Shown: positions 18,901 through 61,937, counted from the first letter of the stretch. The stretch: 64,000 nt of DNA from Tubulanus polymorphus (GCF_964204645.1 NC_134036.1:5858600-5922599); one strand, 5' to 3'. Program-made: numbers and translations. The notes: generated by a model from the letters alone, not told the origin.

Positions 18901-18924
18901 AATGTTCTCTTGCTTTCTTATCTA

Positions 18925-43613: not shown

Positions 43614-44198
43614 AGTAATAGGGGTAATAGGCTTTCATACCAAAGGTCGAACGGTCGAGCCCATTAAAAAACAAAATATTAAAAGTAATTAAAAAACTAT
43701 AATATATTTTCATAACCGCGTGCATTTTATATCAAAACTAAATATTTATTCTAAGATATCAATAATATAAAAAGCATATTGTATTAAATCAATTAGTCGC
43801 TCCACTTCGCTACCGCTCCGCTCCGCGACCAATTGATTTAATTACAATACACAAATTCAAATAATCAAATATATTCAAATGATAATAATTATTCTATTAT
43901 TCAACTGAAATGCACGCGGTTATGAAAATATATTATAGTTTTTTAATTACTTTTAATATATGTTATTAATGAACTCGATCATTAAACCTTTGATATGAAA
44001 GCCTATTACCCCTATTACTCTTAAAATATTCATTTAAATCATTGAACTTCTAAAATCAATTTTAATAAAAAATATAGTATTAAAATGGAAGCAAATAAAT
44101 ACTACTGCCCAACATGTAATATCGATATAGACAAGTCTCAAAAAGCAAGACACAATAAAACTATAACACATTTAGAGAATAAATTGAAACTAGAATAT
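43614..44198 (+). repeat. Maverick left TIR (585 bp)
   Basis: Reverse complement of 61353-61937; no mismatches seen by eye. Confidence 0.95.
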
Positions 44199-44321
44199 TT
44201 ACAGTTATATTCAGAACAGTTAACAAAAGGAAAGAAATTTATTGAATTATGGAACACTGATCCAAATAATGAACAATACGTTGAGGATACGATGTTTATA
44301 CTAGAACATGATTCTATTTGA
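44085..44321 (+). CDS. Chimeric 78-aa ORF: pPolB N-terminal zinc finger fused to a duplicate of the HNH-ORF C-terminus
   Basis: aa 1-38 are identical to the pPolB N-terminus (inside the TIR). LQLYSEQLTKGKKFIELWNTDPNNEQYVE resembles the end of 45631-46296. Confidence 0.55.
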   Translation: MEANKYYCPTCNIDIDKSQKARHNKTITHLENKLKLEYLQLYSEQLTKGKKFIELWNTDPNNEQYVEDTMFILEHDSI

Positions 44322-45029
44322 GCCTATATACATTCAATGTACAGAGCTATAGAATAAATCTATAAATTCGCAGCTGTTACGGTTGTTACTATAACAACGA
44401 GACATTATGACACGTCATAATCAGAAACGTGTAGAACACTCTAGAACCGGAACTAGATGACGTGGCATAATCAACGACGTGTCATTCTAGAAATCGCCCC
44501 GGAAATGGACATACGCTGTAATATTGTGCTCAGGATATTCTATCTTTCGAAACGAAATAAGGAGTTTATAGTTTACAATTATAAATCTAAATGTAAGTAC
44601 TGTTTGTTGTAGTTATTAGAGCTATTAAATATGAAACCTTTAGATATATTTAAGTGTATTTAGTATATCTTTTAGATAGATAGAGTTACCGCTAATATCT
44701 TTTAGATTAATAAAACACCATACGAATCAAGAAGTGATAGAGAAACTCAAGATACTCTTTCTGACTGAGGAATCAACAGCAATGGATATCAAACCAATAG
44801 AAACTGGCGTAGAATCACCAAAAGATCGACGAAGAAACTATATAAGAATTTCAAAAACATTAAGACTCCAATGATTAAGTTTAACATTTGTTGATGTAGT
44901 TAAATATTTACCAACAATTGAAAAAATGTTTGTAATTATAAATTGTATTTATAGAAATCAAATGATGTATTGGAAGAAACGACTGAACAACTTGTATAAT
45001 GTATTGTGTAAATCTGTTTGGTGAATTTT

Positions 45030-45495
45030 TATGTTCAGTCGTTTCAATAATAATTCGTTTCAATTATGATTAGCGCATGCGCATTAAGCAAAAGCGCTCC
45101 TATAAGAGCGGTTTTGCCTAATGCGAACACGTTTTGATATTTTATGTCGGTCGTTTCTATTTACATAATTATATATTCATTATGTAAATATAATTATGAT
45201 TAACGCATGCGCATTGATCAAAAACGCTCCTATAAGAGCGGTTTTGCCTAGTGCACATGCGTTTGAATTTTCTATGTTCAGTTGTTTCTATTTCACAGAA
45301 TGAATATATAATTATGATTAACGCATGCGCATTGATCAAAAACGCTCCTATAAGAGCGGTTTTGCTTAGTGCGAACACGTTTAGATATTTTTTGTCAGTC
45401 GTTTCTATTTTACAGAATTTACAGAATGAATATATAATTATGATTAACGCATGCGTATTAAGCAAAAGCGCTCCTATAAGAGCGGTTTTGCCCAG
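45030..45495. repeat. Four ~118-130-bp tandem repeats with internal palindromes inside the Maverick
   Basis: aattatgattaacgcatgcgcatt...aaaacgctcctataagagcggttttgc at ~45062, 45192, 45310 and 45437. Confidence 0.9.
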
Positions 45496-45630
45496 TGGTA
45501 TTATTTAGATATCAAGGAATCGAAACAACTTATCAAAAGCAGCGAGGAATGAAAAAGGATGGCGTTGATCGAAGAAATGGAAGAGGATTATAAAATATTA
45601 ACCAATTTAGTAAAAAAATACATATAATAA

Positions 45631-46296
45631 ATGGAACCAGAACAACCACAAACTATCAATATTACAAATAACACTGGTGTTATAAACATATATTACAAGA
45701 AGTGTTCTAAATGTGAATTAGATAAATCATTAACAGAATTTAGTAAGCGTAAGATTAGCAAAGATGGTTTTCAATATTGTTGTAAAACTTGTACTAAACT
45801 ATATACCAAACAATATCGAGAAGATAATATAAAACATTATAATTATTATATGACAAAATATATGAGAGAAAGATATCAAACAGATCTTAATTTTAGATTG
45901 AAACAATGCTTAAGGACTAGATTAACACAATTATTCAACAAAGAAACACATTCAGAAACACTATCTAATTTATTGGGTTGTTCGGATGAATTTCTCAAAT
46001 CATGGATTATATTTCAATTCGATGATAAAATGAATATAGATAATTATGGGGATTATTACCACATTGATCACGTGTTACCAATATCTAAATTTAACATGAA
46101 TGATGAATACAATAAAAAACTTATTTGGGGTTGGAAAAATTTAAGGCCTTTAGAAAAGAAAGAAAATCAAATCAAATCTAATAAACTAGATTTACAGTTA
46201 TATTTAGAACAGTTAACAAAAGCAAAGAAATTTATTGATCAATGGAATAATAATCCAAATAATGAACAATACGTTGAGTCTTTAATGAGTGGTTAA
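45631..46296 (+). CDS. HNH / endonuclease VII-like nuclease with N-terminal Cys4 zinc ribbon (NCLDV-type)
   Basis: CSKC...CKTC, then YHIDHVLPISKF...WKNLRPLEKKENQIKSNK (beta-beta-alpha-metal motif). Confidence 0.8.
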   Translation: MEPEQPQTINITNNTGVINIYYKKCSKCELDKSLTEFSKRKISKDGFQYCCKTCTKLYTKQYREDNIKHYNYYMTKYMRERYQTDLNFRLKQCLRTRLTQLFNKETHSETLSNLLGCSDEFLKSWIIFQFDDKMNIDNYGDYYHIDHVLPISKFNMNDEYNKKLIWGWKNLRPLEKKENQIKSNKLDLQLYLEQLTKAKKFIDQWNNNPNNEQYVESLMSG

Positions 46297-46521
46297 AGAT
46301 TAATATATCTCAAATAAAATATAATAAAAATTACATACCTTCAACTATCTATTATTTCTATTTTAATTTTTAATATTTTCTTTTCAAAAGAGAATACTTT
46401 ATATCACAAATAAAAAATACTAAAAAAACAATAACTAATACTAGAATTCTTTAGCTTTAACTAGCTAGTATCATTTGAAGAATACTTATAATACTATTCT
46501 TATTAAATTTCTATAATATAA

Positions 46522-47127
46522 ATGTCTAAGAAATCGAATAAGAATAATATTAAAGTTGAAAAAACTTTGGAAGATTTAGGTCTAACAGATGATAATGATA
46601 ATGTGGTAACTAAATGTGATAATAAAATTGATAGTAATATTGATTATGAATACTATTTATATTGTAAGCATCATCTAGAACTATTGATTGCGAGTGGAAA
46701 AACTAAAGAGTTTATTGGTAAAACAATAACTTTTCAAGAATTAGATAATATGAACAAAGAAAAAGTAATTAAATATTTTAAGATTTATGAAGAGTCAAGA
46801 TTAGCTAGAATAAATGATTCTATTTCAGATGGTATTGTCAAATGTTATTCAAAATTATGTAACCGGCTAATACCAATTGATGATGAAAATAAATTATATA
46901 GTGATTTGAAAAATGACTACTTAGTTATGACTGAATTACAAAAATGGGTTGGATATGCTTCATTTCAATTAGGATCGGTTATGACATTGATTTCTACTGG
47001 CGTCATAACATTTTCGAACATCAAACCTATGGAATATAAATCAGGTAAGAACGAAACAGATGTACTACAACAAAACGTCGAAACAGAAAATGAATCAGAA
47101 CAAAAATTAACTAAAATAAATGAGTGA
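46522..47127 (+). CDS. Maverick hypothetical protein (201 aa; hydrophobic segment near the C-terminus)
   Basis: Intact ORF, TAAATG start, overlaps the next ORF. Confidence 0.75.
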   Translation: MSKKSNKNNIKVEKTLEDLGLTDDNDNVVTKCDNKIDSNIDYEYYLYCKHHLELLIASGKTKEFIGKTITFQELDNMNKEKVIKYFKIYEESRLARINDSISDGIVKCYSKLCNRLIPIDDENKLYSDLKNDYLVMTELQKWVGYASFQLGSVMTLISTGVITFSNIKPMEYKSGKNETDVLQQNVETENESEQKLTKINE

Positions 47128-47482
47128 TGGAGTTAAGAAAAAGGCTAGATCCGAGAAACAAATTAAATGGGCAAGAGAATTAGGTAAAAGATCATCAGAA
47201 TTAAAAAAAGCTAAGAAAAAGAAATTAACTGATATAAATGAATCACCTGGTATTGATTCAAATAATAATCCATCTAATAGATTCAGCACAGCTGAATCTC
47301 ATAATTACTTATATATTACAATTGGGTTAATCACAATTATTATATTATCCGGTGTAATATATAAATCAAAATTCAAATCTGACGATAAAGATGATCGGAA
47401 ACTTAGTTATCCATGTACAGACAATAAACCACCAGAAAATAAATCAAATGAAAATAAATCTAAAATATTATTAATGGATTAA
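47120..47482 (+). CDS. Maverick small basic protein with one transmembrane segment
   Basis: Lys/Arg-rich N-terminus; YLYITIGLITIIILSGVIY; TAAATG start. Confidence 0.75.
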   Translation: MSDGVKKKARSEKQIKWARELGKRSSELKKAKKKKLTDINESPGIDSNNNPSNRFSTAESHNYLYITIGLITIIILSGVIYKSKFKSDDKDDRKLSYPCTDNKPPENKSNENKSKILLMD

Positions 47483-47485
47483 AAT

Positions 47486-48574
47486 ATGATGAAAAAAGAA
47501 CAATATTTAAGAGATTTATATTACAACCCAGAAAGTGAAGTTTCATATTCAAGTGTTTCGGAATTATGGGATAAAATTAAATCTGATAAAGAAAAAATAA
47601 AATATAGTGAATTAAAATCATGGTTACAAAATCAACCAACATATCAAATTCATAAAAAGATGGATAAAAAATATTTAACAAGAAAAGTTATGGTTTCATA
47701 TATCGATCAGCAATGGCAAGCTGATTTAATTGATATGAAAAACTTAGAAGAATATAACAAAGGATATTTTTGGATACTGAATGTTATAGATATATTCAGT
47801 AGATACGCATGGAGTATCCCGATAAAAAATAAAACTGGTATAGAAGTAACAAATGCTTTTAAATCTATATTTAAAGAAGCTATTCCAGATAAGATACAAT
47901 TTGATGAAGGTAAAGAATTTTATAACAAACATTTCAAAAAACTATTATCTGATAACGATGTAGAATATTTTTCAACACATTCAGATAAAAAAGCATCTGT
48001 TATAGAAAGATTTAATAAAACATTGAAAACTAGAATGTGGAAATATTTTACTGCTAATGAAACATATAAATATATCGATGTGTTAGATGATTTAGTTAAA
48101 GGTTATAATAATTCTAAACATAGTTCTATAAATATGAAACCTATACAAGCTAGAAAAGAAGAAAATTCAGAAATAGTTTGGAATAATTTATATGGAGCAT
48201 TTGTTACACATGATTTTGGAGAACCTAAATTTAAAATAGGACAACACGTAAGAATTTCTAAATATCGAAAAACATTTTATAAAGGTTATACCCCTAATTT
48301 TACAGAAGAAATATTCAAGATTAAAAAGATAATATTAACTAAACCATTTGTTTATAAATTGTTTGATTTAAAAGATGAAGAAATATTAGGTTATTTTTAT
48401 GAACAAGAATTATCATTAGTACCAAATCCAGATGAAATAGAATACAAAATAGAAAAGGTATTGAAAACAAAAACTCTTAAAGGAAAAAAGTATTCTTTGG
48501 TGAAATATAAAGGATATGATGATAAATTTAATGAATGGATTTTATCTAGTAAAATTAAAAGAATAAATGAATAA
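47486..48574 (+). CDS. int: Retroviral-like (rve) DDE integrase with C-terminal chromodomain
   Basis: WQADLIDM, IDIFSRYAW, IQFDEGKEF, KASVIERFNKTLK; chromo-like YKIEKVL...LVKYKGYDDKFNEWI. Confidence 0.96.
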   Translation: MMKKEQYLRDLYYNPESEVSYSSVSELWDKIKSDKEKIKYSELKSWLQNQPTYQIHKKMDKKYLTRKVMVSYIDQQWQADLIDMKNLEEYNKGYFWILNVIDIFSRYAWSIPIKNKTGIEVTNAFKSIFKEAIPDKIQFDEGKEFYNKHFKKLLSDNDVEYFSTHSDKKASVIERFNKTLKTRMWKYFTANETYKYIDVLDDLVKGYNNSKHSSINMKPIQARKEENSEIVWNNLYGAFVTHDFGEPKFKIGQHVRISKYRKTFYKGYTPNFTEEIFKIKKIILTKPFVYKLFDLKDEEILGYFYEQELSLVPNPDEIEYKIEKVLKTKTLKGKKYSLVKYKGYDDKFNEWILSSKIKRINE

Positions 48575-49181
48575 AGATTTATTTATATTTGAACCACATA
48601 ATATGTTAGTTACTGGAGTTACAAATTGTGGTAAAACACATTTCATATTAGATTTATTAGAAACTATTTATAAGAATCATTTTGATAATATAATATTATT
48701 CTGTCCTACATATGAAATGAATGAAACGTATAATAGAGATATAGTTTTTAAAGATAAAAAGTTTATTATATTAAATTCTAAAACAGTGAAAGATAATTTA
48801 GATAATTGTATAAAAATTGCATTAGATATTTATAAAGGATCAAATACATTATTTATTATTGATGATTGCGCAAATTTACATGATTCTAAAATTAGAGAAA
48901 GTGAGTTATGTTATTTAGCTTTCTCTGGTAGACATTTTGGGATAACAACTTGGGTTTTAAATCAGAAATATAATTCAATTGTGAAAGATTTTAGAGAGAA
49001 TATAAGATTTCTAGTTTTATTCTACAACAAAGATAGAAAATCTATGCAACAATCATTGGAAGAAAATCAAATTATACCTCCTGAATTACATGATGAATAT
49101 ATGAATAAATTAAAAAATAATAAAGGTTCAAAATTATTACTGAGATTACAATTTCCATATGAATATAAATTTATAAAATAA
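48567..49181 (+). CDS. A32/FtsK-like DNA packaging ATPase
   Basis: Walker A GVTNCGKT, Walker B LFIIDD, SGRHFGITTWVLNQ (Arg finger and Gln). Confidence 0.93.
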   Translation: MNKDLFIFEPHNMLVTGVTNCGKTHFILDLLETIYKNHFDNIILFCPTYEMNETYNRDIVFKDKKFIILNSKTVKDNLDNCIKIALDIYKGSNTLFIIDDCANLHDSKIRESELCYLAFSGRHFGITTWVLNQKYNSIVKDFRENIRFLVLFYNKDRKSMQQSLEENQIIPPELHDEYMNKLKNNKGSKLLLRLQFPYEYKFIK

Positions 49182-49199
49182 CTATTTGTATACCTATGT

Positions 49200-49310
49200 A
49201 TTAGATACCCTATTATATACCCTAATACCTGATACCCTAATACCTGATACCTTAATACCTGATACCTTAATACCTGATACCCTAATACCTGATACCCTAT
49301 TAGATACCTT
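49200..49310. repeat. 15-bp tandem repeat between convergent gene blocks
   Basis: (ctaatacctgatacc)n, about 7 units. Confidence 0.9.
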
Positions 49311-49367
49311 AAATAATTTAAACCCCCTTTTTTATTTACTATTATTTTATACAATTTTAAACCTTTA

Positions 49368-50339
49368 TTATTCGAGTTTTAGATAATCAATTTCTGAATC
49401 ACTTTCACTATCAGACGCTAACAATTTATTTAAATGCTCTACCGAATCTTCTTCAATATCTTTATAATTTTTTTTCACCTTTTTCACCTTTTTCACCTTT
49501 TTTACCTTTTTCATATTTTTTACTAAATCATCAATAGTTGTTTCATTTTTAAACTTATTCTTCCAATCAAATTTATTATTATTTTCTACTTTAAGTTTTA
49601 TAGAATCTTTATTATCAATATGTTTAACTGTAACTATATCATCATGTGGGTGTATGGCACCATTTTCATTATCATCTTTATTAGTGTTTGCTCCTAATAT
49701 TTCATTTACAGTGTTTGATCCTAATATTTCATTAGCATCGGTTAAATCTAATTCATCTTTATTAGGTGTTGCTAATAAAAAATCTTCATATAATTCTTTA
49801 CCATTTACTTTTTTATTTGAAACAAACTTTGTAACATATCTAAATGGGTGTTCTATAAATTCTCTTAAACCAACACGTTCTATAACATTAGTAATATGTG
49901 AATTTGTATTTATATGTTTATTCCAATTTGATGGAGCGTTTGAAAATTCACCATTACAATAACCACAATAATTTCTATTTTCACTAACATCTAATATTAT
50001 TGTATTATTATATGTAGAAGGTATTATATTATTTGATGTAGAGGGTATTACAGATGTAGAAGGTATTATGTTATTAGATGTAGAAGGTATTACATTATAA
50101 GATGTAGAAGGTATTACGTTATTAGATGTAGAAGGTATTACATTATTATCAATTACATTACTTAAATTATCAACAACTTCACTTTTATTATTATCGATTT
50201 CTATTAGTTTAGTTTTATAATTTTTAAAAATAGGATCAAATATCAAAGCTATATTACAAGGTATTACATAATATAAACCATCATTATTTTCATGTGTATC
50301 GATGTATGGAATATGTTTATATACTTTACCTCCTTCCAT
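49368..50339 (-). CDS. Maverick hypothetical protein with C2H2-type zinc finger, VIPSTSNN repeats and (KKV)n tail
   Basis: YCGYC...WNKHINTNSH; 24-bp coding repeats at ~50010-50150; TAAATG start. Confidence 0.8.
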   Translation of the reverse strand: MEGGKVYKHIPYIDTHENNDGLYYVIPCNIALIFDPIFKNYKTKLIEIDNNKSEVVDNLSNVIDNNVIPSTSNNVIPSTSYNVIPSTSNNIIPSTSVIPSTSNNIIPSTYNNTIILDVSENRNYCGYCNGEFSNAPSNWNKHINTNSHITNVIERVGLREFIEHPFRYVTKFVSNKKVNGKELYEDFLLATPNKDELDLTDANEILGSNTVNEILGANTNKDDNENGAIHPHDDIVTVKHIDNKDSIKLKVENNNKFDWKNKFKNETTIDDLVKNMKKVKKVKKVKKVKKNYKDIEEDSVEHLNKLLASDSESDSEIDYLKLE

Positions 50340-50371
50340 TTATTATATATATTTTTATTAAAGTTAAAATT

Positions 50372-51619
50372 TTAATACATAACACTATCTAACTGTGAAT
50401 CTACAATATTTAATTGCGCATCAGATATAATATAAATATGCATTTTAAAATTTTTGATTCCCTTTTTCTTTGTCATGAATAATTGTATTCCATCTTTTGT
50501 ATTTTGTAGTTTTTTCCCAGAACCATGTAATGAATTATCCTCTGTTGTTCTAAAATCTAACCATAATGCATATTTATTACCGGTATAATAGTCAATTTGA
50601 TTAATATTACAATTTTCAAATGATTTTATTTTTTCATTCATAAAATGTTTTTTAATTTCTACCCATTGATCTATCATTCTCATTCCTTGACAAAATATTT
50701 TATTTGCTATTCCTTCGATAGTTATTTCTACTTTTGTTATTTCAGGATTATAATAATTATCAACATTTATTGCGCCATTAGTATACGTTCCAATGGTAAA
50801 AAATATTAATATACCTTTAATAGATCTTCTAGGAAAGTTAATATTCTCATTAATAATTTCATCATTTGCATTAAAAGTTACAGTTTTAAATTTATCAATA
50901 TAATCATATAATAATGAAAATCCTTGATTGTATTGAGTTTGAATTATAGTTGAAATATTTTCATCAGTTACTGTATCATATTCTAAACATATATTCGATA
51001 ATTTATAACTCATATCTTTAACAACGCTAGATAATACAATTTCATTTACAGGAGCAAATGTTATCTCAAATATAATATCTTCTTGAATTGCGTATTTATA
51101 TAAAGGTGCATTATTATTTATCAATTCAAAATCTAATGGAATTTTATATTTACTTCCATATATACTTTTTATCAATTTATCTACATCATTAGTTAATATT
51201 GCGCTATTAGCTTCTGATCTTAATCTATTTTGGTTTTCTGATTGGATGCCTTGAAATATCATATTATTTCTATTTTCTTTAGTTAACCATAAATCTTTAT
51301 AGTGCATAAATAAATTATAATCATCTAATGAGAAAACTGTTTCCGGACCAATCTTTATTGTTAACTTTTTAATCAAATATCTTCCAACATTATCAACAAC
51401 ATAATTATTATTATTACCGATTACTTTTATATCAGCGGATAAATAAATACTATTTGGAACGTAAAAAGTATTTTGTGTTAATCGAGGGATTCTAACGTAT
51501 AAAGTTTCATCGGGATTAATATTTGAAGGGTTATGAGTAATTATATGATGTGATCTTTCTGCTTTAATAGCATTAGATATTCTATTATTCTTAGAAGGAT
51601 TGATATAACTCCCACTCAT
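50372..51619 (-). CDS. Putative major capsid protein (double jelly-roll)
   Basis: 415 aa, beta-rich; motifs ITHNPSNI...LYVRIPRL, YKLSNICLEYD, ENINFPRRSIKGILIFF and YALWLDFRT...LHGSG resemble invertebrate Polinton MCPs (from recall, not a search). Confidence 0.75.
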   Translation of the reverse strand: MSGSYINPSKNNRISNAIKAERSHHIITHNPSNINPDETLYVRIPRLTQNTFYVPNSIYLSADIKVIGNNNNYVVDNVGRYLIKKLTIKIGPETVFSLDDYNLFMHYKDLWLTKENRNNMIFQGIQSENQNRLRSEANSAILTNDVDKLIKSIYGSKYKIPLDFELINNNAPLYKYAIQEDIIFEITFAPVNEIVLSSVVKDMSYKLSNICLEYDTVTDENISTIIQTQYNQGFSLLYDYIDKFKTVTFNANDEIINENINFPRRSIKGILIFFTIGTYTNGAINVDNYYNPEITKVEITIEGIANKIFCQGMRMIDQWVEIKKHFMNEKIKSFENCNINQIDYYTGNKYALWLDFRTTEDNSLHGSGKKLQNTKDGIQLFMTKKKGIKNFKMHIYIISDAQLNIVDSQLDSVMY

Positions 51620-51685
51620 TTATTTAACAAAAAAATAATTAATTTTTGATATCATGGTTTACTTGATATTTTTTGATATCATGGT

Positions 51686-53383
51686 TTACTTGATATCTTT
51701 TGATATCATATTCACTAACCCAAAAATAATAGCACTTACAACTGTAATTAAAAATAAAATAATATGTTCAGCAGCAAAGTTAATAATGTTTCCTGCAGAT
51801 TTCAATATAAAACCAACAATTGATGCAATAACTCCTGGTAATGCTGCAGCAGATTTTTTAGATAGTTCCCATAAATATTTTGCTAATTTCTTTAAACCAT
51901 CTTTAACTTTATCTTGCATAGAATTATTGTTTGGAGGTTTATCTGGTTTATTGGGAGTAGGAGTAGATTTTAAAGCATTTGATATTACTAAACCAATTGT
52001 TGTAAATACCATAGTTACAGATGTTAGAATTGAAAGAATTGTTATTCCTTCTAACTTAAATAATAACTTTATTCTGTCTTTTAATGATATTTCAGAATTT
52101 GGTTTAATCAACAAATCTTTAAAAATAACTTTTAATCTATTAATATTATAATCATATGATTTTAATAATAATTTAATTTCTTCTTTTTGTAATTCTATGT
52201 TATATTCTAAATCATCTATTTCTTTTTCTAAATATACATTTCTTTTTTTAAATTCGATTTCTTCAATAACTTGATTATCTCTATCTAATTTTAGTTGTTC
52301 TATTTCTTTATTTTTATCAGTTCTATCTTTTTCTAAAAATCTAATTTTAATATCTCTTTTACTTTTTTCATGCGCAATTTTATCAGCTGATTCTTGCATA
52401 CCTTTAATTTCTCTACGTGTTTGTTCAGGAAATGCTTCTAATTCATCATCAGTTAAATCAAGTAATCCTTTTTCTAGTAAAGATTGTATTCGATTTATTC
52501 CAGCACTATTCATCAGTTCTTCTGAATCTCTTAATCTATCAATTTGTTTTTCTAATTGTAATTTACTTGAATCATTATCAATTTGTTGAGTGTCTCTTCT
52601 AGATGTTTCGGGTGTTGAAGATCTTAATCTATCTAATCGATTTCTATTCTCTTCCATTTCTGGATCAAAATCAGTAGGATTTGGATTTGGATTTTTAAAT
52701 GGATTTTTAAATGGTGAATATTTGTTTATATCAATTTTAGGAATTGGTTCTTCTTCATTTATTCTATCGAGTGCATTCCATATAATTCTGAGAAATTCTG
52801 TGCCACCTTTTGAATGTTCAATTGTAGATAATGCTCGCATTTCAGGTTCATAAATATTTTCTTGACCCATTTTAGATAATTGAATTGATACAATTTTGTT
52901 ATTTAAATCAAGATTATAATACCATGCATCATTTTTAAATTCTAAATTATTCATGAAATATGGGTCATCTTTAAAAATTTGTTCTACAACACCTTTTGGA
53001 TCAATTTCATGTATTACAGCTATTGGTAGTAATTCGCTAACAATTGTATCTGTTACTTTAGATTTCATTTTATATAATTCCAAACGTTCATTAGGATATT
53101 TTTCTTCTTGTTTTACTAATAATTCCATGAATTCTTTTCTTTCTGTTCTAGTTGAAATTTTACCACTTTCAAGAGCTTCTAAATATTTATTTAATTTTTC
53201 ACGTACTTCGGTATTAATTCCATCATCATCATCATAATCATCTTCACCTAAATTAGTATTATATGCTGATTCATCATCATAATCAATATTAGTTTCTGTA
53301 TCATTATAATCATCATCAATATATCCTTCATTATTATTTCCCATTTCTCCCATTTCATAATCTTCTCCACCTTCTACATCCAT
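51686..53383 (-). CDS. Maverick 565-aa protein: acidic N-terminus, long coiled coil, C-terminal hydrophobic/amphipathic helices (candidate membrane-penetration protein)
   Basis: GITILSILTSVTMVFTTIGLVI, ALPGVIASIVGFIL and IILFLITVVSAIIFGLV segments. Confidence 0.8.
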   Translation of the reverse strand: MDVEGGEDYEMGEMGNNNEGYIDDDYNDTETNIDYDDESAYNTNLGEDDYDDDDGINTEVREKLNKYLEALESGKISTRTERKEFMELLVKQEEKYPNERLELYKMKSKVTDTIVSELLPIAVIHEIDPKGVVEQIFKDDPYFMNNLEFKNDAWYYNLDLNNKIVSIQLSKMGQENIYEPEMRALSTIEHSKGGTEFLRIIWNALDRINEEEPIPKIDINKYSPFKNPFKNPNPNPTDFDPEMEENRNRLDRLRSSTPETSRRDTQQIDNDSSKLQLEKQIDRLRDSEELMNSAGINRIQSLLEKGLLDLTDDELEAFPEQTRREIKGMQESADKIAHEKSKRDIKIRFLEKDRTDKNKEIEQLKLDRDNQVIEEIEFKKRNVYLEKEIDDLEYNIELQKEEIKLLLKSYDYNINRLKVIFKDLLIKPNSEISLKDRIKLLFKLEGITILSILTSVTMVFTTIGLVISNALKSTPTPNKPDKPPNNNSMQDKVKDGLKKLAKYLWELSKKSAAALPGVIASIVGFILKSAGNIINFAAEHIILFLITVVSAIIFGLVNMISKDIK

Positions 53384-53399
53384 TTACATAATAAAAAGA

Positions 53400-54788
53400 T
53401 TAAAATTTAAAATATAATATTCCTCCGATTACAATTCCTATACAAGTTATAGCTAATTTAGTATTTTCATGGGATTTATTATCATCATTTAGTTTAATTA
53501 TATCATGTTGAATTTTATCAGTTCTATTATTTTCTGTAGTATTGTAATCTTTTATTTTAGAATCATTATCCAATTTAATATTCTTAGTTTTAGTTTCAGT
53601 TGATTGAATATGTTTTTTATTTTTTTCACCTTCCATTAATTTTGGAGCAGTAATAATCTTTTTATTTATATCATTTAATCCAAATGAATTATTTATTGTT
53701 GCAGTTTTAATTAGATTATTATAACCAATTATGTTTCCCATCTTTAATACTAAATCATTAGAAATAATTAATAGATTAGGGCCTATACAATAATTAAGTC
53801 TTACATGAGATTTATCTAAATAATTTTGATATCTTATAATGTTTTCTGGAATCGATCTATTTTTATCATTATGAATTGAATCTTCAAATAAAACTTTAAA
53901 TTGTTTTTGTGTATCAAATGATGTATTCAAATTTCCAATTATCGGTGATCTTGTTTCAACTTGTGATCCTAGAATACAAATCAAATAAATTCTAATAGAT
54001 TGATTTATTCTTTCTATACCTGATTTTGTAAAACCTTCACTATTTTCTAAAATAAAATAAACCCAACCATTATTGTTTTCTTGTTTTAAATTATCATAAA
54101 ATTTTGGTAATTTATTGAAATTTAATGTTTCTAAATCCTTTGTTTCTATTTTACCATAACCTAATTTATTATTATAGATATTATAAAAACTATTAGATGG
54201 TATGGGAAGTGCACAATATTCTGCAATCTTTTTAGGGCAAGGAAGTGATCTTATTGTTCCAATTTTTGTTCTAAAATCAGAATTATTTATATCTATATTA
54301 AATTCATTGCAAATTTTATAAAACTTAGATAAATTAATATTATTATCTAATTCTTTAAAATATCTAGATCCTGGTAAAGCGCACTCTAATTCATTTAATA
54401 TTATTCTGATTTGAAAATATGTATGAAATCTAAATAAACTTTGAATTAGTTTATATTTAGAATTATTCAAATGATCATTCCAACTTATTCCACATCCTGT
54501 TGTTGCACAATAAACAGCAAAATTTAATTGGTTCTGCCAATACTTCATATTAGATTTTAATAACCATTGTTTTTCATCTTTCGATTTTTTAAAATTAATT
54601 AAATATACATGAAATATATTTTCCATCTTTGTATTAAAATTATTAGTTTCAGTAACATAAATTTCTAAATTAGTTAATGAATCTAAAACTTCATTTCTAT
54701 ATGTAATATCTTTATTAAAATCTATTGCTGGAATATTATATTTAATTGATTTATTATATTGGAAAGCTTTTGGAAAACTATCTGCCAT
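53400..54788 (-). CDS. Maverick 462-aa protein with C-terminal membrane anchor
   Basis: WQNQLNFAVYCATTGCGIS and FRFHTYFQIR motifs; tail LAITCIGIVIGGILYF. Confidence 0.8.
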   Translation of the reverse strand: MADSFPKAFQYNKSIKYNIPAIDFNKDITYRNEVLDSLTNLEIYVTETNNFNTKMENIFHVYLINFKKSKDEKQWLLKSNMKYWQNQLNFAVYCATTGCGISWNDHLNNSKYKLIQSLFRFHTYFQIRIILNELECALPGSRYFKELDNNINLSKFYKICNEFNIDINNSDFRTKIGTIRSLPCPKKIAEYCALPIPSNSFYNIYNNKLGYGKIETKDLETLNFNKLPKFYDNLKQENNNGWVYFILENSEGFTKSGIERINQSIRIYLICILGSQVETRSPIIGNLNTSFDTQKQFKVLFEDSIHNDKNRSIPENIIRYQNYLDKSHVRLNYCIGPNLLIISNDLVLKMGNIIGYNNLIKTATINNSFGLNDINKKIITAPKLMEGEKNKKHIQSTETKTKNIKLDNDSKIKDYNTTENNRTDKIQHDIIKLNDDNKSHENTKLAITCIGIVIGGILYFKF

Positions 54789-54804
54789 TTATATAATTAA
54801 AAAA

Positions 54805-55239
54805 TTAATAATTTATTAATTCTTTTAATAATTTATCTTGTTCTTCAACTGTTATATGACCATTTAAACTTATTATATAATCTAGTGTGTTCTTTAATTT
54901 ATTAATTTCTTTTATATTAATTTTAATTTTTTCTTTATTACTTTTTATATTTAATTTTGAACTTATACCAGTTAAAACACTTGAACTTAATCCTAACACA
55001 CCAATTGATATAGCTAAAGGTGTTAATGGACTGAATATTGCTAGAAATGTTATTACAGAACTAATTGTAACCGAACCACTGATAATCAAATAATATATAA
55101 TTTTACTTTTTAAATATTTTTTCTTTTTTATCTTTAAGTCACTTTCAAATTCTAATATTTGTTTTTCTAAATATGTTTTTAATTTAGTTTTATTTATATC
55201 ATGAGGAATAATATCAATACTATCAACTTTATCTTCCAT
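54805..55239 (-). CDS. Maverick 144-aa two-TM membrane protein
   Basis: IIYYLIISGSVTISSVITFLAIF and LAISIGVLGLSSSVLTGI between basic coiled segments. Confidence 0.78.
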   Translation of the reverse strand: MEDKVDSIDIIPHDINKTKLKTYLEKQILEFESDLKIKKKKYLKSKIIYYLIISGSVTISSVITFLAIFSPLTPLAISIGVLGLSSSVLTGISSKLNIKSNKEKIKINIKEINKLKNTLDYIISLNGHITVEEQDKLLKELINY

Positions 55240-55259
55240 TTATTTAACAAAAAAAATTA

Positions 55260-55682
55260 CTAATTAGTAAACTTATAAGCAACAAATATAACAATAACTG
55301 TTCCACCTAAAATCCAAATTATTTCATATTTCTGTTGTTCTTTACTTGGGGTATAATAATCTGATAATTTAGGTTTGTATAGATGTAATTTTTCTTTATT
55401 GGTTACTGTGTTATATAAACTCATTGCATCATCAACTGATTGAAAATCTCTGTGTGAAATCTTCTGATCGTATAATTCTTTATTGATGTAATCCATATAG
55501 TTTTGTCTCTTTTCTCTATATTCTTCTACAGCTTTATTGTATTTCTCTAACGCTAAGTTATGTCTTCTTTGTTCTCCTAATGAACTATTTTTATCAATAT
55601 GTTTAAATAAATAACCACCACCAGTAAATGCTAAAGCGTTAACAATTGCTGATCCTATAATAGTTATAATTGCAGAAGCCAT
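55260..55682 (-). CDS. Maverick 140-aa membrane protein
   Basis: Hydrophobic N-terminus MASAIITIIGSAIVNALAFTGGGYLF, EQRRHNLALEK, C-terminal TM IIWILGGTVIVIFVAY. Confidence 0.8.
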   Translation of the reverse strand: MASAIITIIGSAIVNALAFTGGGYLFKHIDKNSSLGEQRRHNLALEKYNKAVEEYREKRQNYMDYINKELYDQKISHRDFQSVDDAMSLYNTVTNKEKLHLYKPKLSDYYTPSKEQQKYEIIWILGGTVIVIFVAYKFTN

Positions 55683-55706
55683 TTATTTAGCAAAAAAATT
55701 ATGTAT

Positions 55707-55928
55707 TTATATGGGAGGAATACATTTTTGTTTTTCCAAATGACCAATAGTTAAATTAGATAAAGTAACTGCTAATGTTAACTTTAAAATATCATTTATA
55801 TCAAATCTATCAACATTAACACTTCCCATTTTGAATACTTTTTTTAATACCATTGAATAACCAACAGTTCCAACTGATAGTAATGCGCCATTATATAATC
55901 CAGTTATTATCCACTTATAATCACTCAT
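55707..55928 (-). CDS. Maverick 73-aa hydrophobic protein
   Basis: Two hydrophobic segments; T-run plus TAAATG start like its neighbours. Confidence 0.72.
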   Translation of the reverse strand: MSDYKWIITGLYNGALLSVGTVGYSMVLKKVFKMGSVNVDRFDINDILKLTLAVTLSNLTIGHLEKQKCIPPI

Positions 55929-56270
55929 TTATTTATCAAAAAAATTACTATCATCAAAATATTTAGTTATCTTATTTATGATTATTTCAACATTTATTTC
56001 ATTACTAGTTTTATGATTATCATATATTTTGGATAATATGTTTTTAATATCATCAATAATTCCATCTTCATTTAATTCATAATATTCTAAAGGTGATTTA
56101 ATTAAATCAATTACTTTTTCTATATTATACTTTTCTTTATCAATCATTGATGTATTGTTAAATGATTTACTTTTTATATCAGTAATTACATCATTTAGTT
56201 TAATTCTCATTTCTTTACCATGTTTAAAATCAAACCCAAAACATATACTCGGTCCAACAGTTATATTCAT
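55929..56270 (-). CDS. Maverick hypothetical protein (113 aa)
   Basis: Intact ORF, T7-N7-TAAATG start; its stop abuts the next ATG. Confidence 0.7.
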   Translation of the reverse strand: MNITVGPSICFGFDFKHGKEMRIKLNDVITDIKSKSFNNTSMIDKEKYNIEKVIDLIKSPLEYYELNEDGIIDDIKNILSKIYDNHKTSNEINVEIIINKITKYFDDSNFFDK

Positions 56271-56287
56271 TTATATAGTGAAAAAAA

Positions 56288-57046
56288 TTACTCTCTACAT
56301 CTTATAACTAATTCATATATCACAGGGAAATTATTCAAATCAATTAAGTATCCATTATGATTTCTAATTTCTAATCTAAAATTATTAAAACGAGGAATGC
56401 ATGGTTTGAAATCACATTCTGTTAAATTATAATTTATTTGCGTTCCAAATTCTTTAACATTCTTCAATGGTAAAATGTTTAGTAAACCAGAATTACAAGT
56501 TATATCTTTAGTTGCTTCGAATGTTTTTGTAGGATCGATTAAATTGCAATAAATATAAAAATGTGTAAAAGGCATTATATTTGGTGTAGCATCAGCATTG
56601 CGTATCCTTATATCTGGGGTTATTCCTAAAATTTTAGCTAAAGGTTTTTTAACTAGAAATTGATGTTGATCTTCATTACCTAATTTTATTCTTATTTTAT
56701 CAGAACTATCACTTTTAATCAGTCTTAATCCAAATCCAGCAGATGCACCCATTTTCAACCGAGCTCTTCTATTAATTTCTTGAGCTAATGTTTCTAAATT
56801 ATATAATCCTGGTTTAAGATAAAGATGAAACCATTTACTTTTATTTCTATCATGAATTAAAAAGACTCTATGTTCAATAGACTTATCCGATACATTGTAA
56901 AAAGAATTACATAAACTTATATTTACTAATTTTAAATCTACACAATTCTTAAATTCTCTGTCTAATTGTACTAATAAATTATGTGATTTATAATTTGTAA
57001 GTTTTCTAGAATCAACAAATATTCTATATTCTTTTAATTCCGCCAT
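56288..57046 (-). CDS. Putative minor capsid protein (penton, single jelly-roll)
   Basis: IFVDSR...SFYNVS...LKPGLYNLETL...LAKILG...FYIYCNLI...LEIRNHNGYLIDLNNFPVIYELVI pattern typical of Polinton/virophage mCP. Confidence 0.8.
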   Translation of the reverse strand: MAELKEYRIFVDSRKLTNYKSHNLLVQLDREFKNCVDLKLVNISLCNSFYNVSDKSIEHRVFLIHDRNKSKWFHLYLKPGLYNLETLAQEINRRARLKMGASAGFGLRLIKSDSSDKIRIKLGNEDQHQFLVKKPLAKILGITPDIRIRNADATPNIMPFTHFYIYCNLIDPTKTFEATKDITCNSGLLNILPLKNVKEFGTQINYNLTECDFKPCIPRFNNFRLEIRNHNGYLIDLNNFPVIYELVIRCRE

Positions 57047-57063
57047 TTATTTTACATATTTTC

Positions 57064-57405
57064 TTATTCGAAATCTATTTCATGGTGCCCTTTTTCATTC
57101 TTACCTTTGTATACGAAATAGAAATCTCCAGAACATAATTCTTCTAGATCTTCACTTGATAATCTATGAAATCTATCTGGTAAATAAGTTCTGAATTTAT
57201 ATTTATTTCCTTTTAATCCTTCATATTCTAAATGAATTATTAATTTATCTCCATATTTATTAGTAATTGTTTCAATGTTAGTAATTAAATATTTCTTGTG
57301 AATTGATAATTCTGTTAACTTTTTGAATTTATAATCTACAGATTTGACGTTTGAAGTATCTTTAATTCTATCTAAGAATTCACTGTGTACTTGTTTACTC
57401 TCCAT
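57064..57405 (-). CDS. Maverick 113-aa protein, possible OB-fold ssDNA-binding protein
   Basis: FKKLTEL...YLIT...TNKYGDKLIIHL...TYLPDRF beta-rich pattern, adjacent to pPolB; function is inferred. Confidence 0.65.
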   Translation of the reverse strand: MESKQVHSEFLDRIKDTSNVKSVDYKFKKLTELSIHKKYLITNIETITNKYGDKLIIHLEYEGLKGNKYKFRTYLPDRFHRLSSEDLEELCSGDFYFVYKGKNEKGHHEIDFE

Positions 57406-57433
57406 TTATTATAGAAATTTTTATTGAAATTGA

Positions 57434-60400
57434 TTAACATGTTAGAATCCTTTTCATAATCTCATTTTCTTTTGTTTCTTCTCTTTTGAATTTTATATAT
57501 TCATCTAAATTGCAACCATAGGCGACTGTGTGGATTCCATCATCTAAAATATATCTTTTATCATCAAATGGGTTTAGACTTATCTTCTCTATCTCTTCAA
57601 TATACATTTCATGATCTTCAGATCTTAAACATTTCATTTTATGTTTTCTAACTTCTTCATTAAATATACAATTGATGTAATCTTTGAAATGAATATTCTT
57701 TTCTACTACACTTTTTGTTATTCCTTTTAACTTTTTAGCTTCATGTTCTTTAGTTTTATAACTATACATTTTAGATCTAATACCAATGAACTCTATCATT
57801 TTTCTTCACCGCCTAATTCATCCTTAAACTTCCCAGGAACTTTTTTATTATCATTGCTAAACAATTCATGATCTTTAGGATAGTTACTGAAATCAAAATG
57901 ATGATTTAATATTTTTAAATCATCAGTTATGTTATCACTTTTTATCTTTAATATGTAAGAATCTGTATCTAGATATAAGATTTCTATATTTTTTTCCCCA
58001 AAATGGGGATGCAATACATTATAATAGAATTCATACATCAATAGCTTTGATAACTCTAAAACCGATGCGCCAACATAAATAGGTTTATTGAATTTAATAG
58101 ACGTTCTCTTCATCGTAACTGCTGCTAAATTTTCATCGAATATTCTATTACCTATGAATTTCGGATACGATTGCAAATGTCTAATTCTTTTACCATTACT
58201 AACTAACTCAATATCATTTCTATTTCTTATGTTTTCACATGTTTTTCCATAGAACGCATTATTCATTAGTTTAAAGTAATCTTTTTCAAAATCAGTTTTA
58301 GCTTCAGTTCTCTGTGTAGTATTAAAATCTATATATTTTTCTAACCACTTAGATTGATTAAATGAAATATATCTATGTACTTTTTTTAGAATCATTCCTT
58401 GATTCAAATAAAACTTCAACATTCTATAATGTACTACATAATTATATTTATCTTCTTGAGTTACCATTAACTTTTCAGTATGAATATGATTATCGGGTTT
58501 AATTCTTTTTTGATAATTTGATAATTCTTCATGTTTAACAGTTTTATGTTCGGGACAATATGCTAGATTTCTAGATTTGAATTTAATATTTTCAGGGTAT
58601 TCTAAATCTACAACAAAGAAGTAACCAGTATCTGAATCATCTGCAATATCTAGGATTCTTTTCTTCCAATCAAATTTATCAATTTGTAAAACTTCAGTTA
58701 TTTCAAACATCCCATAAGGTTGTGGTTCCATCATTGCCCAACCATAAAGATTATTTGCATCTATGTATAATAATTTATATCCAGGATTATCATTTACATT
58801 GAAATATCTATCACCCAATACACCTGAAACACCTCCTCTTATAGATTTTTCAAATAATAGTAATTGATCTATATTTGTTAACAAATCCATTTTTATATCT
58901 GTAAATTTTGAACCACAATCCCATGTTAAACCTGGGCTAGAATAACAATGACAAGGATCAATATTAAAGTATTTTAGGTTTACATCTCTAAACCTTTCAA
59001 ATATATCGGTTAATAATAATACATCTGATTTTAAATATAAATCTACTAATTGTCCATGATTTTCTATTTTGAAATGATTCCAAATATTCAATGTTCTATT
59101 ATATACTTCATCTTTAACATATTCATTTTTTAATTCATCATAGAATTGTTCTTTCAATAATTCAGTTATTTTAAAATCATTATGATTTTTATAGAAAGAA
59201 TATGGAATTGCGCCTTTATATCTCATTAATTTAAAATCATCATAATTTGGGTAATATTCTTTTAATATCTTTAATTCATCATCAACTAATGATTTTGATA
59301 GATTGTCTAATGAACTATTTAAAAATCTATATGAATCTATAAATCTTAGACAACCAAATTGGAATGATATATAATTCTCAGATGTATTAGCTAACATTCT
59401 AAATTTATAAGTTGGTATTTTATCTTTTGATTTATTTGAATTTAATATTTCTATTTCATTATTGATTTCTTCTATTTTATAACATAGCTGTTTGATAAAT
59501 AAATGTGCATCATATCCTGATAGATTATGAAATATAACTGGTACAAAATTAATTTTCTTAGCTACAAGTTACAATTCTCATGTGCAGCGCCTCTAAACTT
59601 TCCATTCAAATGATCATGGTCTCTTACTTTTTTATCTTTATAATTAAATATCTTTTCACAATAATAACATTTATCTGCAAACGCAAATTCTTCTTTATCT
59701 TCTTCTATCATTATAATTTCTATATTTGTATTCAATAATTTACTAAATCTTATTTCATATTCAATTAATAAGTCACAAAAATGATTGATAACATTTTCAT
59801 TTCTATAATTATAATATTCACTTTCAATTAGTTCTGGATAATCAGATTTAATATATAATCCGAAAGCTGCAGCTGATTGATGAATCTTTTTAATTGTATT
59901 TGTTATTGGTGGTTCTTCTGAATAATCATTTTCATTGGAATTTAATTTCTTTCTTTTATAATATATATCTTTTCTATCTTGATCAGTTAATTCTTTATTT
60001 AATGATTCAAAATCTCCATATATTACAAATGGTACTTTATTTTTGTAATCATATTTTTTGAATTCTAATATTTTATCCTTTTCACTTGGTAAAACTAATT
60101 TACAATAATCATGATTTTCACATAATTGTTTATGATCTAATAATGTACTTTCATTACTGAATTTATGTAAACATTTTCTACATAGATATATTTTATTATG
60201 GTGATCACTTTCTGTTCTAAAGAATAAATCTATTTGTTTAATCCACATATAATGATTCTCAAAATATAATATATCTATAACCACGTTTGAATCATAATCT
60301 TTTGATAGGTATAAAGGTTCTAATGTATAATGTTTAATATTATTTCCTTTTGTATTTGGTAATTTAATTAAATCAAATACATTTATTTTAAGATTATTAT

Positions 60401-61466
60401 CTCTTTCTATTTTTGGAATATTTTTAATTCTAACAGGATATTTATCTATCTTATAATTATTTTCAAATTGTTTATAATGAGTTAATCTAAAACTATGTGT
60501 AATATCTTCTGTTGGATGTAAACAACTTATTATAGCCCATATAAAACATTTATTATCAAAATTTTGTATATTTATTACACCATTAGTTTTAAATGGTAGT
60601 TTAATATAACTTGTTCCATTTATATTATCATCTTTATAATATGATAAATTATTTTCATCAATTGGTTTTGATTTAGTTAACTTATTATATTTTGTGTTAT
60701 AAACATGTAAAGTTATAAATATTATCTCATCAAATATTAAACCAGATCCTTCAAAATATTTCTCTTCTATTTTAGTTTTTATTTCATTATAACATTTATT
60801 TAATTTATCATCTATATGTTGTTTAGATATAATATGTTGTGAATGAGAATTTATATTATATATTGGTTTATCTTCAGATTTTATAAACTTTACTTTAACT
60901 GATATACTAATTTTTGGATATTCTACGTTTGTAATTATTTTTATTATTTCTTTCATATTTTCTAAATGTTTTTTATTTTCTTCTATTGTTTTTCCTTTAT
61001 GAAATTTAAACTCGATAGCTGCTGGACCAATATCACTTTTAAATGCTTCGGTTATCTCTATATCTTTTTTATTATCTAATGAATTAATATAATTTCTTAC
61101 ATCTTCCATGTATGGTCTTTTATTGTTTAATTTATTTTTTATTCTTTTAATTGTCTTCTGTTTCTTATCGTTATCATTATCAAAATAATCTTCACCTAAA
61201 ATATCATTATTCTTATTTCTAATATGACTTATAGATTTTAAATGTTCTTTATAATATCTTTTATCACTGAATGATTGATTACATGTATCACATTTGTATG
61301 TTTCTTTTTCATTCTTTAATTCTTCTAATTTAGTTTCTAATATATCATCTTTATATTCTAGTTTCAATTTATTCTCTAAATGTGTTATAGTTTTATTGTG
61401 TCTTGCTTTTTGAGACTTGTCTATATCGATATTACATGTTGGGCAGTAGTATTTATTTGCTTCCAT
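57434..61466 (-). pseudogene. polB: Protein-primed family B DNA polymerase (pPolB) interrupted by two frameshifts (~59562 and ~57799)
   Basis: ExoI VIYGDFES, ExoII FHNLSGYDAHL (read in 59400-59560), ExoIII YLKSDVLLL, motif A YIDANNLYGWAM, motif B KLMNNAFYGK, motif C YLDTDS, EFIGIRSKMYS and C-terminal PFDDKRYI. Split across ORFs 59562-61466, 57796-59397 and 57434-57799. Confidence 0.95.
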
Positions 61467-61937
61467 TTTAATACTATATTTTTTATTAAAATTGATTTTA
61501 GAAGTTCAATGATTTAAATGAATATTTTAAGAGTAATAGGGGTAATAGGCTTTCATATCAAAGGTTTAATGATCGAGTTCATTAATAACATATATTAAAA
61601 GTAATTAAAAAACTATAATATATTTTCATAACCGCGTGCATTTCAGTTGAATAATAGAATAATTATTATCATTTGAATATATTTGATTATTTGAATTTGT
61701 GTATTGTAATTAAATCAATTGGTCGCGGAGCGGAGCGGTAGCGAAGTGGAGCGACTAATTGATTTAATACAATATGCTTTTTATATTATTGATATCTTAG
61801 AATAAATATTTAGTTTTGATATAAAATGCACGCGGTTATGAAAATATATTATAGTTTTTTAATTACTTTTAATATTTTGTTTTTTAATGGGCTCGACCGT
61901 TCGACCTTTGGTATGAAAGCCTATTACCCCTATTACT
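61353..61937 (-). repeat. Maverick right TIR (585 bp)
   Basis: Reverse complement of 43614-44198; includes the pPolB start and first 38 codons. Confidence 0.95.

Follow-up and report, generated by a model that had tools for sequence, protein, structure and literature searches.

Polinton-3_NV and Polinton-N1A_NV of Nematostella vectensis are the closest described relatives of the DNA considered here; both were tabulated in 2014 with a major capsid protein (MCP) and a packaging ATPase, and as protease-negative (PMC4028283, Table S1), and cnidarian MCPs of this type fall outside the Maverick cluster, near PgVV. A membrane protein has been described in nematode Mavericks: MFUS-1, the one fusogen so far proposed for Mavericks, is a lone class III glycoprotein of 866 aa with a glycoprotein-B fold, a signal peptide and one transmembrane (TM) segment, encoded by elements that retain the protease (Widen et al.). 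Further afield, a double jelly-roll (DJR) MCP, a penton, an A32 ATPase and a protein-primed DNA polymerase B (pPolB), with no protease, make up the tectivirus gene set (PMC4642659), while virophages and Gezel-14T carry the promoter motif of their helpers. Entomopoxvirus-associated Polinton-like viruses (PLVs) also exist, encoding a protease and other MCPs; a text search of the paper describing them found no promoter analysis. The comparison literature covered here comprises several papers and preprints (PMC4028283, 10.64898/2026.06.19.733378, PMC11296320, PMC8502044, PMC11131425, PMC11071308, PMC5294985, PMC4542343, PMC11980589, PMC10120064, PMC4642659, 10.1101/2022.07.12.499685, 10.1101/2023.08.22.554363, 10.1101/2022.07.28.501842 and 10.64898/2026.10.13.758929). 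In this study, we analyse a stretch of 64,000 nucleotides from Tubulanus polymorphus (GCF_964204645.1 NC_134036.1:5858600-5922599; hereafter the window), which holds an AT-rich, 18.3-kb Polinton-like element with a conserved set of genes for hydrophobic proteins and a poxvirus-type promoter at nearly every gene, and we consider what kind of virion and what kind of helper these two features suggest.

Five co-oriented minus-strand open reading frames (ORFs) of 565, 462, 144, 140 and 73 aa (M565, M462, M144, M140 and M73) lie between the MCP and penton genes at 51686..55928, as a preliminary description had proposed, with one further, non-hydrophobic ORF of 113 aa (55929-56270) intervening before the penton. 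A hydrophobic segment was defined as a 19-mer with a Kyte-Doolittle (KD) mean of at least 1.6, with a second hydropathy scale as cross-check, and all TM calls are hydropathy estimates. By this measure M565 has three segments in this copy, M462 one at its extreme C-terminus, M144 two, M140 two (at both ends), and TM120, the product of a further ORF at 47120 that had also been described as TM-bearing, one. At least one KD segment is found in homologues of M565 (30/30), M462 (18/24, or 24/24 on the second scale), M140 (27/30) and the M144 family (21/21), compared with 0/56 MCPs and 1/45 ATPases. Four of the five original TM calls are thus robust and hold across homologues. The fifth does not: M73 reaches a best KD of 1.16 here, 5 of its 24 homologues pass the threshold, and the protein is amphipathic rather than TM and membrane-associated at best.

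Relatives were the best 80 of 199 matching loci from a metagenome scan with an MCP alignment, most of them partial, and 33 loci taken from IMG/VR via pPolB served as controls. Among the 20 lineage loci of at least 8 kb, M565 and M462 are each present in 17, M140 and M73 in 19, and o201 and TM120, which are encoded on the plus strand, in all 20; where M565, M462, M140 or M73 is missed, the contig ends within the element. None of these six families occurs in the 33 control loci, whereas the SLATT-like M144 family is found in 14 of the 20 long lineage loci and also in 3/33 controls. The median share of hydrophobic ORFs among genes is 44% across 21 lineage sequences (30% in this copy) and 8% across 27 controls no shorter than 8 kb; this comparison was made on related, non-independent loci, and its p-value is overstated. 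Measured against the relative L003, dN/dS is 0.24 for M462, 0.23 for M144, 0.16 for M140 and 0.10 for M73, with 0.23 for the MCP; the very close pair L074/L079 gives ratios near 1 on few changes. Across the loci compared, the six hydrophobic gene families are conserved lineage-wide and under purifying selection.

The arrangement of these genes is less constant than their presence. All five block genes are contiguous and co-oriented in one of the 13 relatives that hold all five (L003), so that the contiguous module of the preliminary description exists here and in L003 but not in the other 12, though the genes themselves are conserved lineage-wide. In the usual layout, M462 adjoins M565 on the opposite strand (adjacent in 23/27) and M565 lies beside the MCP (39/46), and a second group runs in the order ATPase-o201-TM120-M73-M140, with successive pairwise adjacencies of 34/40, 31/31, 22/23 and 25/27.

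Among the individual proteins, M565 has C-terminal hydrophobic helices that surround a Pro-rich loop and an amphipathic helix; it contains no Cys in this copy and about 0.4 Cys per protein across homologues, which have a median of three hydrophobic segments; and its C-half is 65% identical to that of L003, compared with 17% for the N-half. Profile searches with M565 returned generic coiled-coil matches only. Its homologues have scattered weak matches to nine tape-measure PHROGs (E 9e-4 to 0.02, each family matched by one or two homologues), which by build alone would fit a DNA-delivery channel. The earlier suggestion of a fusogen or pore former divides: a pore or conduit fits the protein, and a fusogen is unsupported, with an N-terminal hydrophobic, signal-like segment found by hydropathy in 0/30 M565 homologues (and in 0/24 of M462). 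A class I-III fusogen such as MFUS-1 was rejected on the missing signal peptide, the scarcity of Cys and the presence of three clustered C-terminal hydrophobic helices instead of one TM. M565 is a candidate genome-delivery channel, more likely than a fusogen, and also a candidate membrane-shaping protein. M462 has a confidently modelled (AlphaFold2, AF2; pLDDT 84.8) but unrecognised fold, belongs to a very large family (3280 representatives at 50% identity, E<=0.001) and retains its C-terminal hydrophobic segment in 20/24 homologues. M144 is here a short form without the YPxL/PSAP motifs of its longer homologues, and 25/35 homologues of o201 carry an additional N-terminal hydrophobic segment.

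The preliminary description had also reported that no adenain/Ulp1-type protease, a core gene of canonical Mavericks, is encoded. Pfam found no protease family among 18 ORFs and 58 further stop-to-stop fragments of at least 45 aa. Because its adenain model is weak on Polintons (2 matches among 74 scanned of 155 control candidates), a purpose-built six-frame profile was made from 21 control proteases, each of which was recovered at E<=2e-16 when left out. This profile detects 22/33 control loci at E<=2e-29, against a best E of 7.7 in the 64-kb window and of 0.25 in 423 kb of the 80 relatives, and the protease-negative relatives L024 and L029 are elements bounded by terminal repeats. M462, the only ORF with candidate catalytic residues, was discarded as a protease, its Cys not being conserved in a deeper alignment. 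On the points it had itself put at risk, the preliminary description was not contradicted in substance: an adenain was recognised in none of the ORFs, the TM calls stand for four of the five proteins, and conservation extends to the genes, though not to their contiguity.

The missing protease is real, but it is already known for the family to which the element is assigned by its MCP. Compared by eye with the Polinton-3_NV MCP (PMC4028283, supplement 4), the MCP is identical at 49 of 107 gap-free N-terminal positions and has motifs in common through to the C-terminus, and a lineage profile of 56 MCPs matches 0/33 control loci at E<=1e-4. On this evidence the element is a member of the Polinton-3_NV / N1A_NV family; given the tabulation of that family as protease-negative in PMC4028283, and since PLVs are generally protease-less, the absence is not new. 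A canonical Maverick that has lost its protease was likewise rejected, as the MCP is of another family and matches that of the protease-less Polinton-3_NV. Octocoral, hydrozoan and bivalve elements have been placed among Aquintoviruses (Bellas & Sommaruga 2026), and these 'Aquintovirus-related' elements are probably of the Polinton-3_NV-type lineage. MCP homologues with 54% identity (protein P0049 and its cluster) have been deposited as 'Bartonella sp.' hypothetical proteins on short contigs, probably through host contamination of assemblies.

The gene starts of the element, whose layout the preliminary description had not named, may be its more striking feature. TAAATG is found at 14 of 16 starts, the exceptions being those of the integrase and pPolB; the background frequency is 57 of 728 ATGs. 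Seven consecutive genes (MCP, M565, M462, M144, M140, M73 and the acidic 113-aa ORF) have a stretch of 5-8 T that ends 6-7 nt upstream of TAAATG; the T-run class earlier ascribed to the MCP and the five block genes is thus confirmed in this copy and takes in the 113-aa ORF as well. At the HNH-like, TM120, ATPase, 323-aa, penton, second 113-aa and pPolB genes, an A-run lies 9-10 nt upstream instead. In poxvirus late promoters, as reviews describe them, 5-7 bp separate a T-rich core from TAAAT(G), and in intermediate promoters an A-rich stretch precedes TAAA; in its motifs and spacing, the T-run and TAAATG layout of the element matches that of the late promoters, and its A-run class matches the intermediate ones.

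In relatives, TAAATG is bimodal: it is found at 81/91 starts in 22 loci, 0/52 in 15 other AT-rich loci and 2/317 in 40 GC-richer loci, counts that show bimodality only, the classes being defined by the motif itself and three loci with fewer than two genes being excluded. A quick MCP tree and controls on overlaps and core support the class independently. The tree has a strongly supported split between clade A (22 rows, 19 with the motif) and clade B (38 rows, none with it). Stop-start overlaps explain 6/81 TAAATG starts only, and an A/T-only core stands at -17 to -12 in 55/81 of them, versus 24/81 at a control position further upstream. T at -3 is rare in the other locus class, where A or G is found at 109/138 starts.

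Three further loci touch on these promoters. L104 (an IMG/VR contig, 1-9034) is an unrelated pPolB element with a protease fused to the N-terminus of its integrase and TAAATG at 7/7 genes, which suggests a second lineage relying on the same helper class; its integrase is also the best-scoring control match to that of the element (45%). The clade-A elements L046 and L047, which are without TAAATG, carry a 169-aa gene (L046:6543-7052, L047:4427-4936) with a weak Pox_VLTF3 match (E 6e-4, below the cut-off), and no homologue of it was found in the other loci or the 64-kb window.

Read from its genes, the element probably belongs to a virus whose virion contains lipid in some form, and this part of the earlier proposal of a lipid-containing or enveloped virion is the best-supported reading, the enveloped alternative remaining a rival. 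The combination of DJR MCP, penton, A32 ATPase and pPolB with no protease is present here, and proteins that are signal-less, tail-anchored or hairpin-shaped suit a cytoplasmic open membrane under a jelly-roll shell and not a secretory-pathway spike. With a poxvirus-type promoter at nearly every gene, and no RNA polymerase among the element ORFs by Pfam scan, the element likely depends on a pox-like helper, by which, to judge from its gene starts, it is likely transcribed; for clade A as a whole, pox-like transcription seems to us probable. Taken all together, a lipid-containing virion, most likely of the inner-membrane, tectivirus-like kind, combined with pox-like helper transcription falls just short of an even chance.

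Such a virion might be built as follows. Signal-less proteins of the M565 and M462 type would insert into a cytoplasmic, factory-derived membrane, as the virion proteins of poxviruses and asfarviruses do, and over this membrane MCP trimers would form a coat. For packaging, the A32 ATPase would drive the terminal-protein-linked genome through a vertex, itself anchored by small proteins that most relatives encode after the ATPase (o201, TM120, M73 and M140). At entry, the DNA would be delivered through a helical channel or pore made of M565, possibly with M140, which would take the place of the protease-activated lytic proteins and phospholipase of Mavericks. Until a pox-like virus supplied RNA polymerase and late factors, the integrated copy would remain silent, an arrangement like that of virophages with mimiviruses. 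The most specific version of this proposal, a genome-integrated 'pox virophage' of invertebrates that joins a helper late RNA polymerase switch to a PRD1-like inner-membrane capsid made with six proteins of unrecognised fold, is speculative, and we think it rather unlikely as stated.

Several observations weigh against an inner-membrane virion served by a pox-like helper. The six hydrophobic families have no recognised homologue, and Pfam, PHROG, PDB-sequence and fold searches gave no link to membrane proteins of tectiviruses or nucleocytoplasmic large DNA viruses; M73 and o201 are weakly hydrophobic in this copy; and PLVs in general are protease-less with no known membrane module. The pPolB, a single ORF of 1176-1211 aa in relatives, is broken in this copy. 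As for the promoters, the split between T-run and A-run is unstable across the clade (a T-run precedes M565 in 1/8, M462 in 1/4 and the MCP in 10/19), and depletion of TTTTTNT, which we take to be an 'early terminator', is neither significant in this copy (6 versus 9.7 expected) nor specific. Clade B carries the same membrane genes without TAAATG, so the module is independent of a pox-like factory. Finally, the M144/c4 family contains YPxL in 14/21 members and P[TS]AP in 8/21, compared with 0.3 and 0.1 in shuffles, motifs that presumably act as ESCRT-type (endosomal sorting complex required for transport) 'late motifs'.

The promoter reading has a rival of its own, which is independent of the membrane question: TAAATG might be read by host RNA polymerase II or by a giant virus other than a pox-like one, or might be a translation-context or compaction signal. 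Promoters of ranavirus DNA polymerase contain TAAAT, the asfarvirus late promoter is similarly bipartite, and three clade-A rows are without the motif. The scarcity of T at -3 in the other locus class and the few starts explained by overlaps speak against this rival, the AT-rich controls lack the motif altogether, and the spacer lengths match the description of poxvirus late promoters; we therefore regard this alternative as doubtful. We also know of no pox-like virus of this host, which counts in its favour.

For the virion, the main rival to an inner membrane is an outer envelope acquired by ESCRT-dependent budding, in which the SLATT-like M144 would recruit ESCRT, M462 would serve as a tail-anchored matrix or tegument linker joining capsid to envelope, and M565 or M140 would be a non-classical fusogen. 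The late motifs of the M144 family support it, and in M140 a start resembling a fusion peptide is followed by a helical stalk and a C-terminal TM; moreover, the N-half of M565 is hypervariable within one host species and poorly conserved against L003, as exposed proteins often are, and nematode Mavericks have been proposed to be enveloped. Yet M565 and M462 are signal-less, so that no large lumenal ectodomain is expected, the YPxL and P[TS]AP motifs are absent from M144 of this copy, L003 and L031, and a homologue with late motifs also occurs in the protease-bearing control L084 and is thus not specific to the module. We consider the outer envelope unlikely. It is compatible with an inner membrane, the two co-existing in iridoviruses.

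A little less probable still is a non-enveloped capsid that packages membrane-lytic proteins with their hydrophobic helices folded away until entry, in the manner of adenovirus pVI, orbivirus VP5 or adintovirus GasderminX/cupiennin. In its coiled coil and helical hairpins, M565 is like soluble pore-formers and the translocators of secretion systems; M73 is amphipathic and not a TM protein; three classes of membrane-active protein are encoded by adintoviruses; and the Pfam scan recognised no phospholipase (PLA2) in the element, so another entry activity would be needed. Five to seven separate hydrophobic proteins are nevertheless many against the 0-3 of each control locus, M462 and TM120 have typical terminal or single-pass anchors, and the protease that normally primes such proteins is missing. 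The weakest alternative, that the membrane proteins are not virion components but holin-like lysis proteins or abortive-infection effectors against the host cell or the helper virus, is improbable: defence genes are usually patchy in distribution, and these genes are near-universal in the lineage, stand beside the MCP (M565, 39/46) and the ATPase (o201, 34/40) and have the promoter class of the MCP here, even though M144 is SLATT-like and may by itself have an effector role, and holin-like and SLATT pore-forming families have been reported from across the polisuviruses in a 2026 preprint that proposes roles in defence or egress.

Table 1. Features of the element and its termini, in window coordinates.
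Feature	Position	Strand	Basis or remarks
Complete Polinton-like element, Polinton-3_NV family, 18.3 kb, AT-rich	43614..61937	.	590-nt 100% inverted repeat; 6-bp duplication on both sides; GC; GPCR flanks
Left terminal inverted repeat	43614..44198	+	First ~406 nt an imperfect palindrome
HNH-like ORF, 221 aa	45631..46296	+	A-run promoter class; weak Pfam HNH_4, E 0.04
o201	46522..47127	+	One moderately hydrophobic helix here
TM120	47120..47482	+	Basic N-terminal helix and one predicted TM, residues 63-81
RVE integrase and chromodomain	47486..48574	+	Pfam rve; 39-47% identity to control-locus integrases versus ~25-30% for clade-B integrases
A32-type packaging ATPase	48567..49181	+	Pfam Pox_A32, E 1.7e-12
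323-aa ORF	49368..50339	-	Homologues in closest relatives only (3 loci)
MCP, DJR, Polinton-3_NV type, 415 aa	50372..51619	-	AF2 and Foldseek; T-run/TAAATG promoter
M565	51686..53383	-	Acidic start, hypervariable N-half, helical/coiled-coil ~300-440, hydrophobic helices 447-467, 511-530, 541-560
Promoter-like motif before M565	53381..53400	-	T-run, 6-nt spacer, TAAATG
M462	53400..54788	-	~375-aa mostly helical globular domain, Pro/Thr-rich linker, C-terminal tail anchor 444-461
M144	54805..55239	-	SLATT-like two-TM hairpin; Pfam SLATT_fungal, E 0.007; family also in some control loci
M140	55260..55682	-	N-terminal Gly/Ala-rich hydrophobic segment, helical stalk, C-terminal TM
M73	55707..55928	-	Two moderately hydrophobic helices
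Acidic 113-aa ORF, not hydrophobic	55929..56270	-	T-run promoter class; L003 match confined to 23 N-terminal residues
Penton / minor capsid protein, 252 aa	56288..57046	-	Lineage profile search of control loci
Second 113-aa ORF	57064..57405	-	Homologue in L003
pPolB, three reading-frame pieces in this copy	57434..61466	-	Pfam DNA_pol_B_2
Right terminal inverted repeat	61353..61937	-	Overlaps pPolB start

The remaining features of the element are listed in Table 1. Read from the flanks, its ends at 43614 and 61937 bear an identical 6-bp target duplication, a perfect inverted repeat of 590 nt bounds the insertion (100% identical), and GC is 19-30% inside compared with ~40% outside; the identical ends and the duplication on both sides indicate that the insertion is complete and probably recent. 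It lies in a host cluster of G protein-coupled receptor (GPCR) genes (11170-21779 and 39569-43294), single-ORF genes of the rhodopsin (7tm_1) and Srw types, neighbours that point to an animal host. The outer ~406 nt of each terminal repeat (43614-44019 and its right-end mirror) form a long imperfect palindrome with nested arms of 57 and 65 nt, which is able to fold into a hairpin or cruciform. In the non-coding left arm, four ~120-nt tandem repeats (45062-45536), each with a central palindrome, are reminiscent of baculovirus homologous regions, and a 78-aa ORF at 44085-44321 is likely a rearrangement scar: its pPolB-like beginning lies inside the repeat, and what follows resembles the C-terminus of the HNH-like ORF. 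Where the ATPase and 323-aa genes converge, a 15-nt tandem repeat (49202-49317) lies between them and is a possible terminator region.

The structural model of the MCP (AF2, pLDDT 85.7) matches PBCV-1 (E 2e-17) and SGIV (E 1e-15) in Foldseek, and the lineage profile of the penton matches similar-sized genes in 10/33 control loci, with E down to 3e-15, adjoining the ATPase in L081, L082 and L084. In clade B, L024 (910-1788) and 10 further loci have a fibre-like gene with phage tail-fibre repeats (PHROG E 5e-17) next to the penton; it is absent from this copy. Replication modules have been swapped within the lineage: SF1-helicase-type genes are found in L018 (9970-13596), L044 (8797-11034) and L045, and L031 (8189-12388) carries a 1400-aa pPolB with no BLAST match to the pPolB pieces of this copy.

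A single genomic run that shares its species label with the best holder has 28,928 of its 12.9 million reads (0.22%) on the 7-kb block, mostly at 90-99% identity, and depth over that block is several hundred to ~1,100 for 1,934 Mb read. This indicates a high-copy family, on figures that do not factor in genome size and to which free viral DNA could contribute. Over 52250-53400, the N-half of M565, other copies reach a depth of 35-160 at 88% likeness, down from several hundred, and smaller drops are seen within M462 and the penton; from these read depths, the N-half of M565 and parts of M462 and the penton are hypervariable among copies of one host species.

Both the membrane-protein core and the TAAATG promoters of this lineage appear to be undescribed; no description of either was found among the papers listed in searches of the openly accessible Polinton and PLV literature. 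To our knowledge, work on the small eukaryotic relatives has so far regarded them as lacking a membrane and as matured by a protease. A particle with an inner membrane would close the gap that separates tectiviruses from giant viruses, and a 'pox virophage', if true, would be the first among small eukaryotic jelly-roll viruses to have such a membrane, a bridge from tectiviruses to membrane-containing giant viruses. No virion of an animal Polinton has so far been observed, nor a trigger identified; poxvirus-type promoters name a class of trigger and predict undescribed pox-like viruses in these hosts. Together, the membrane-protein core and these promoters open the virion and the trigger of an animal Polinton to direct testing. 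The families are, furthermore, large and unannotated and, judging by the reads from one host species, an abundant and overlooked part of invertebrate genomes.

Compared with known systems, the element is closest to Polinton-3_NV and N1A_NV, which have the same MCP family, an ATPase, no protease and a comparable size (14-17 kb versus 18.3 kb here); no description of a membrane-protein core or TAAATG promoters was found for them, Polinton-3_NV being compared by its MCP only. Canonical Mavericks, Polintons and adintoviruses (Polintoviricetes) have in common with it terminal inverted repeats, a 6-bp target duplication, pPolB, RVE integrase, A32 ATPase and penton, and SLATT-like (3/33 control loci) and fibre-like (4/33) genes are common to them and the lineage. 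The element differs from them in lacking adenain and a recognised PLA2, in the family of its MCP and in its six lineage-specific hydrophobic genes. The nematode Mavericks with MFUS-1 (Widen et al.) are likewise Polintons with a membrane gene that suggests a lipid-bearing particle, but in the present element there are several such proteins, all signal-less, and the protease is missing. Helper-dependent PLVs and virophages (Sputnik, mavirus, Gezel-14T/PgVV) resemble it as small integrating DJR viruses with the promoter motif of a giant helper, but their helpers are mimivirus-like and their hosts protists. Tectiviruses carry many small membrane proteins. Represented by PRD1 and Bam35, they are also like the element in their linear ~15-kb genome, pPolB, DJR MCP, penton, A32/P9 ATPase and lack of a protease; the element differs in its animal host, its integrase and the lack of membrane-protein homology in PHROG scans, so that the likeness is one of analogy rather than membership.

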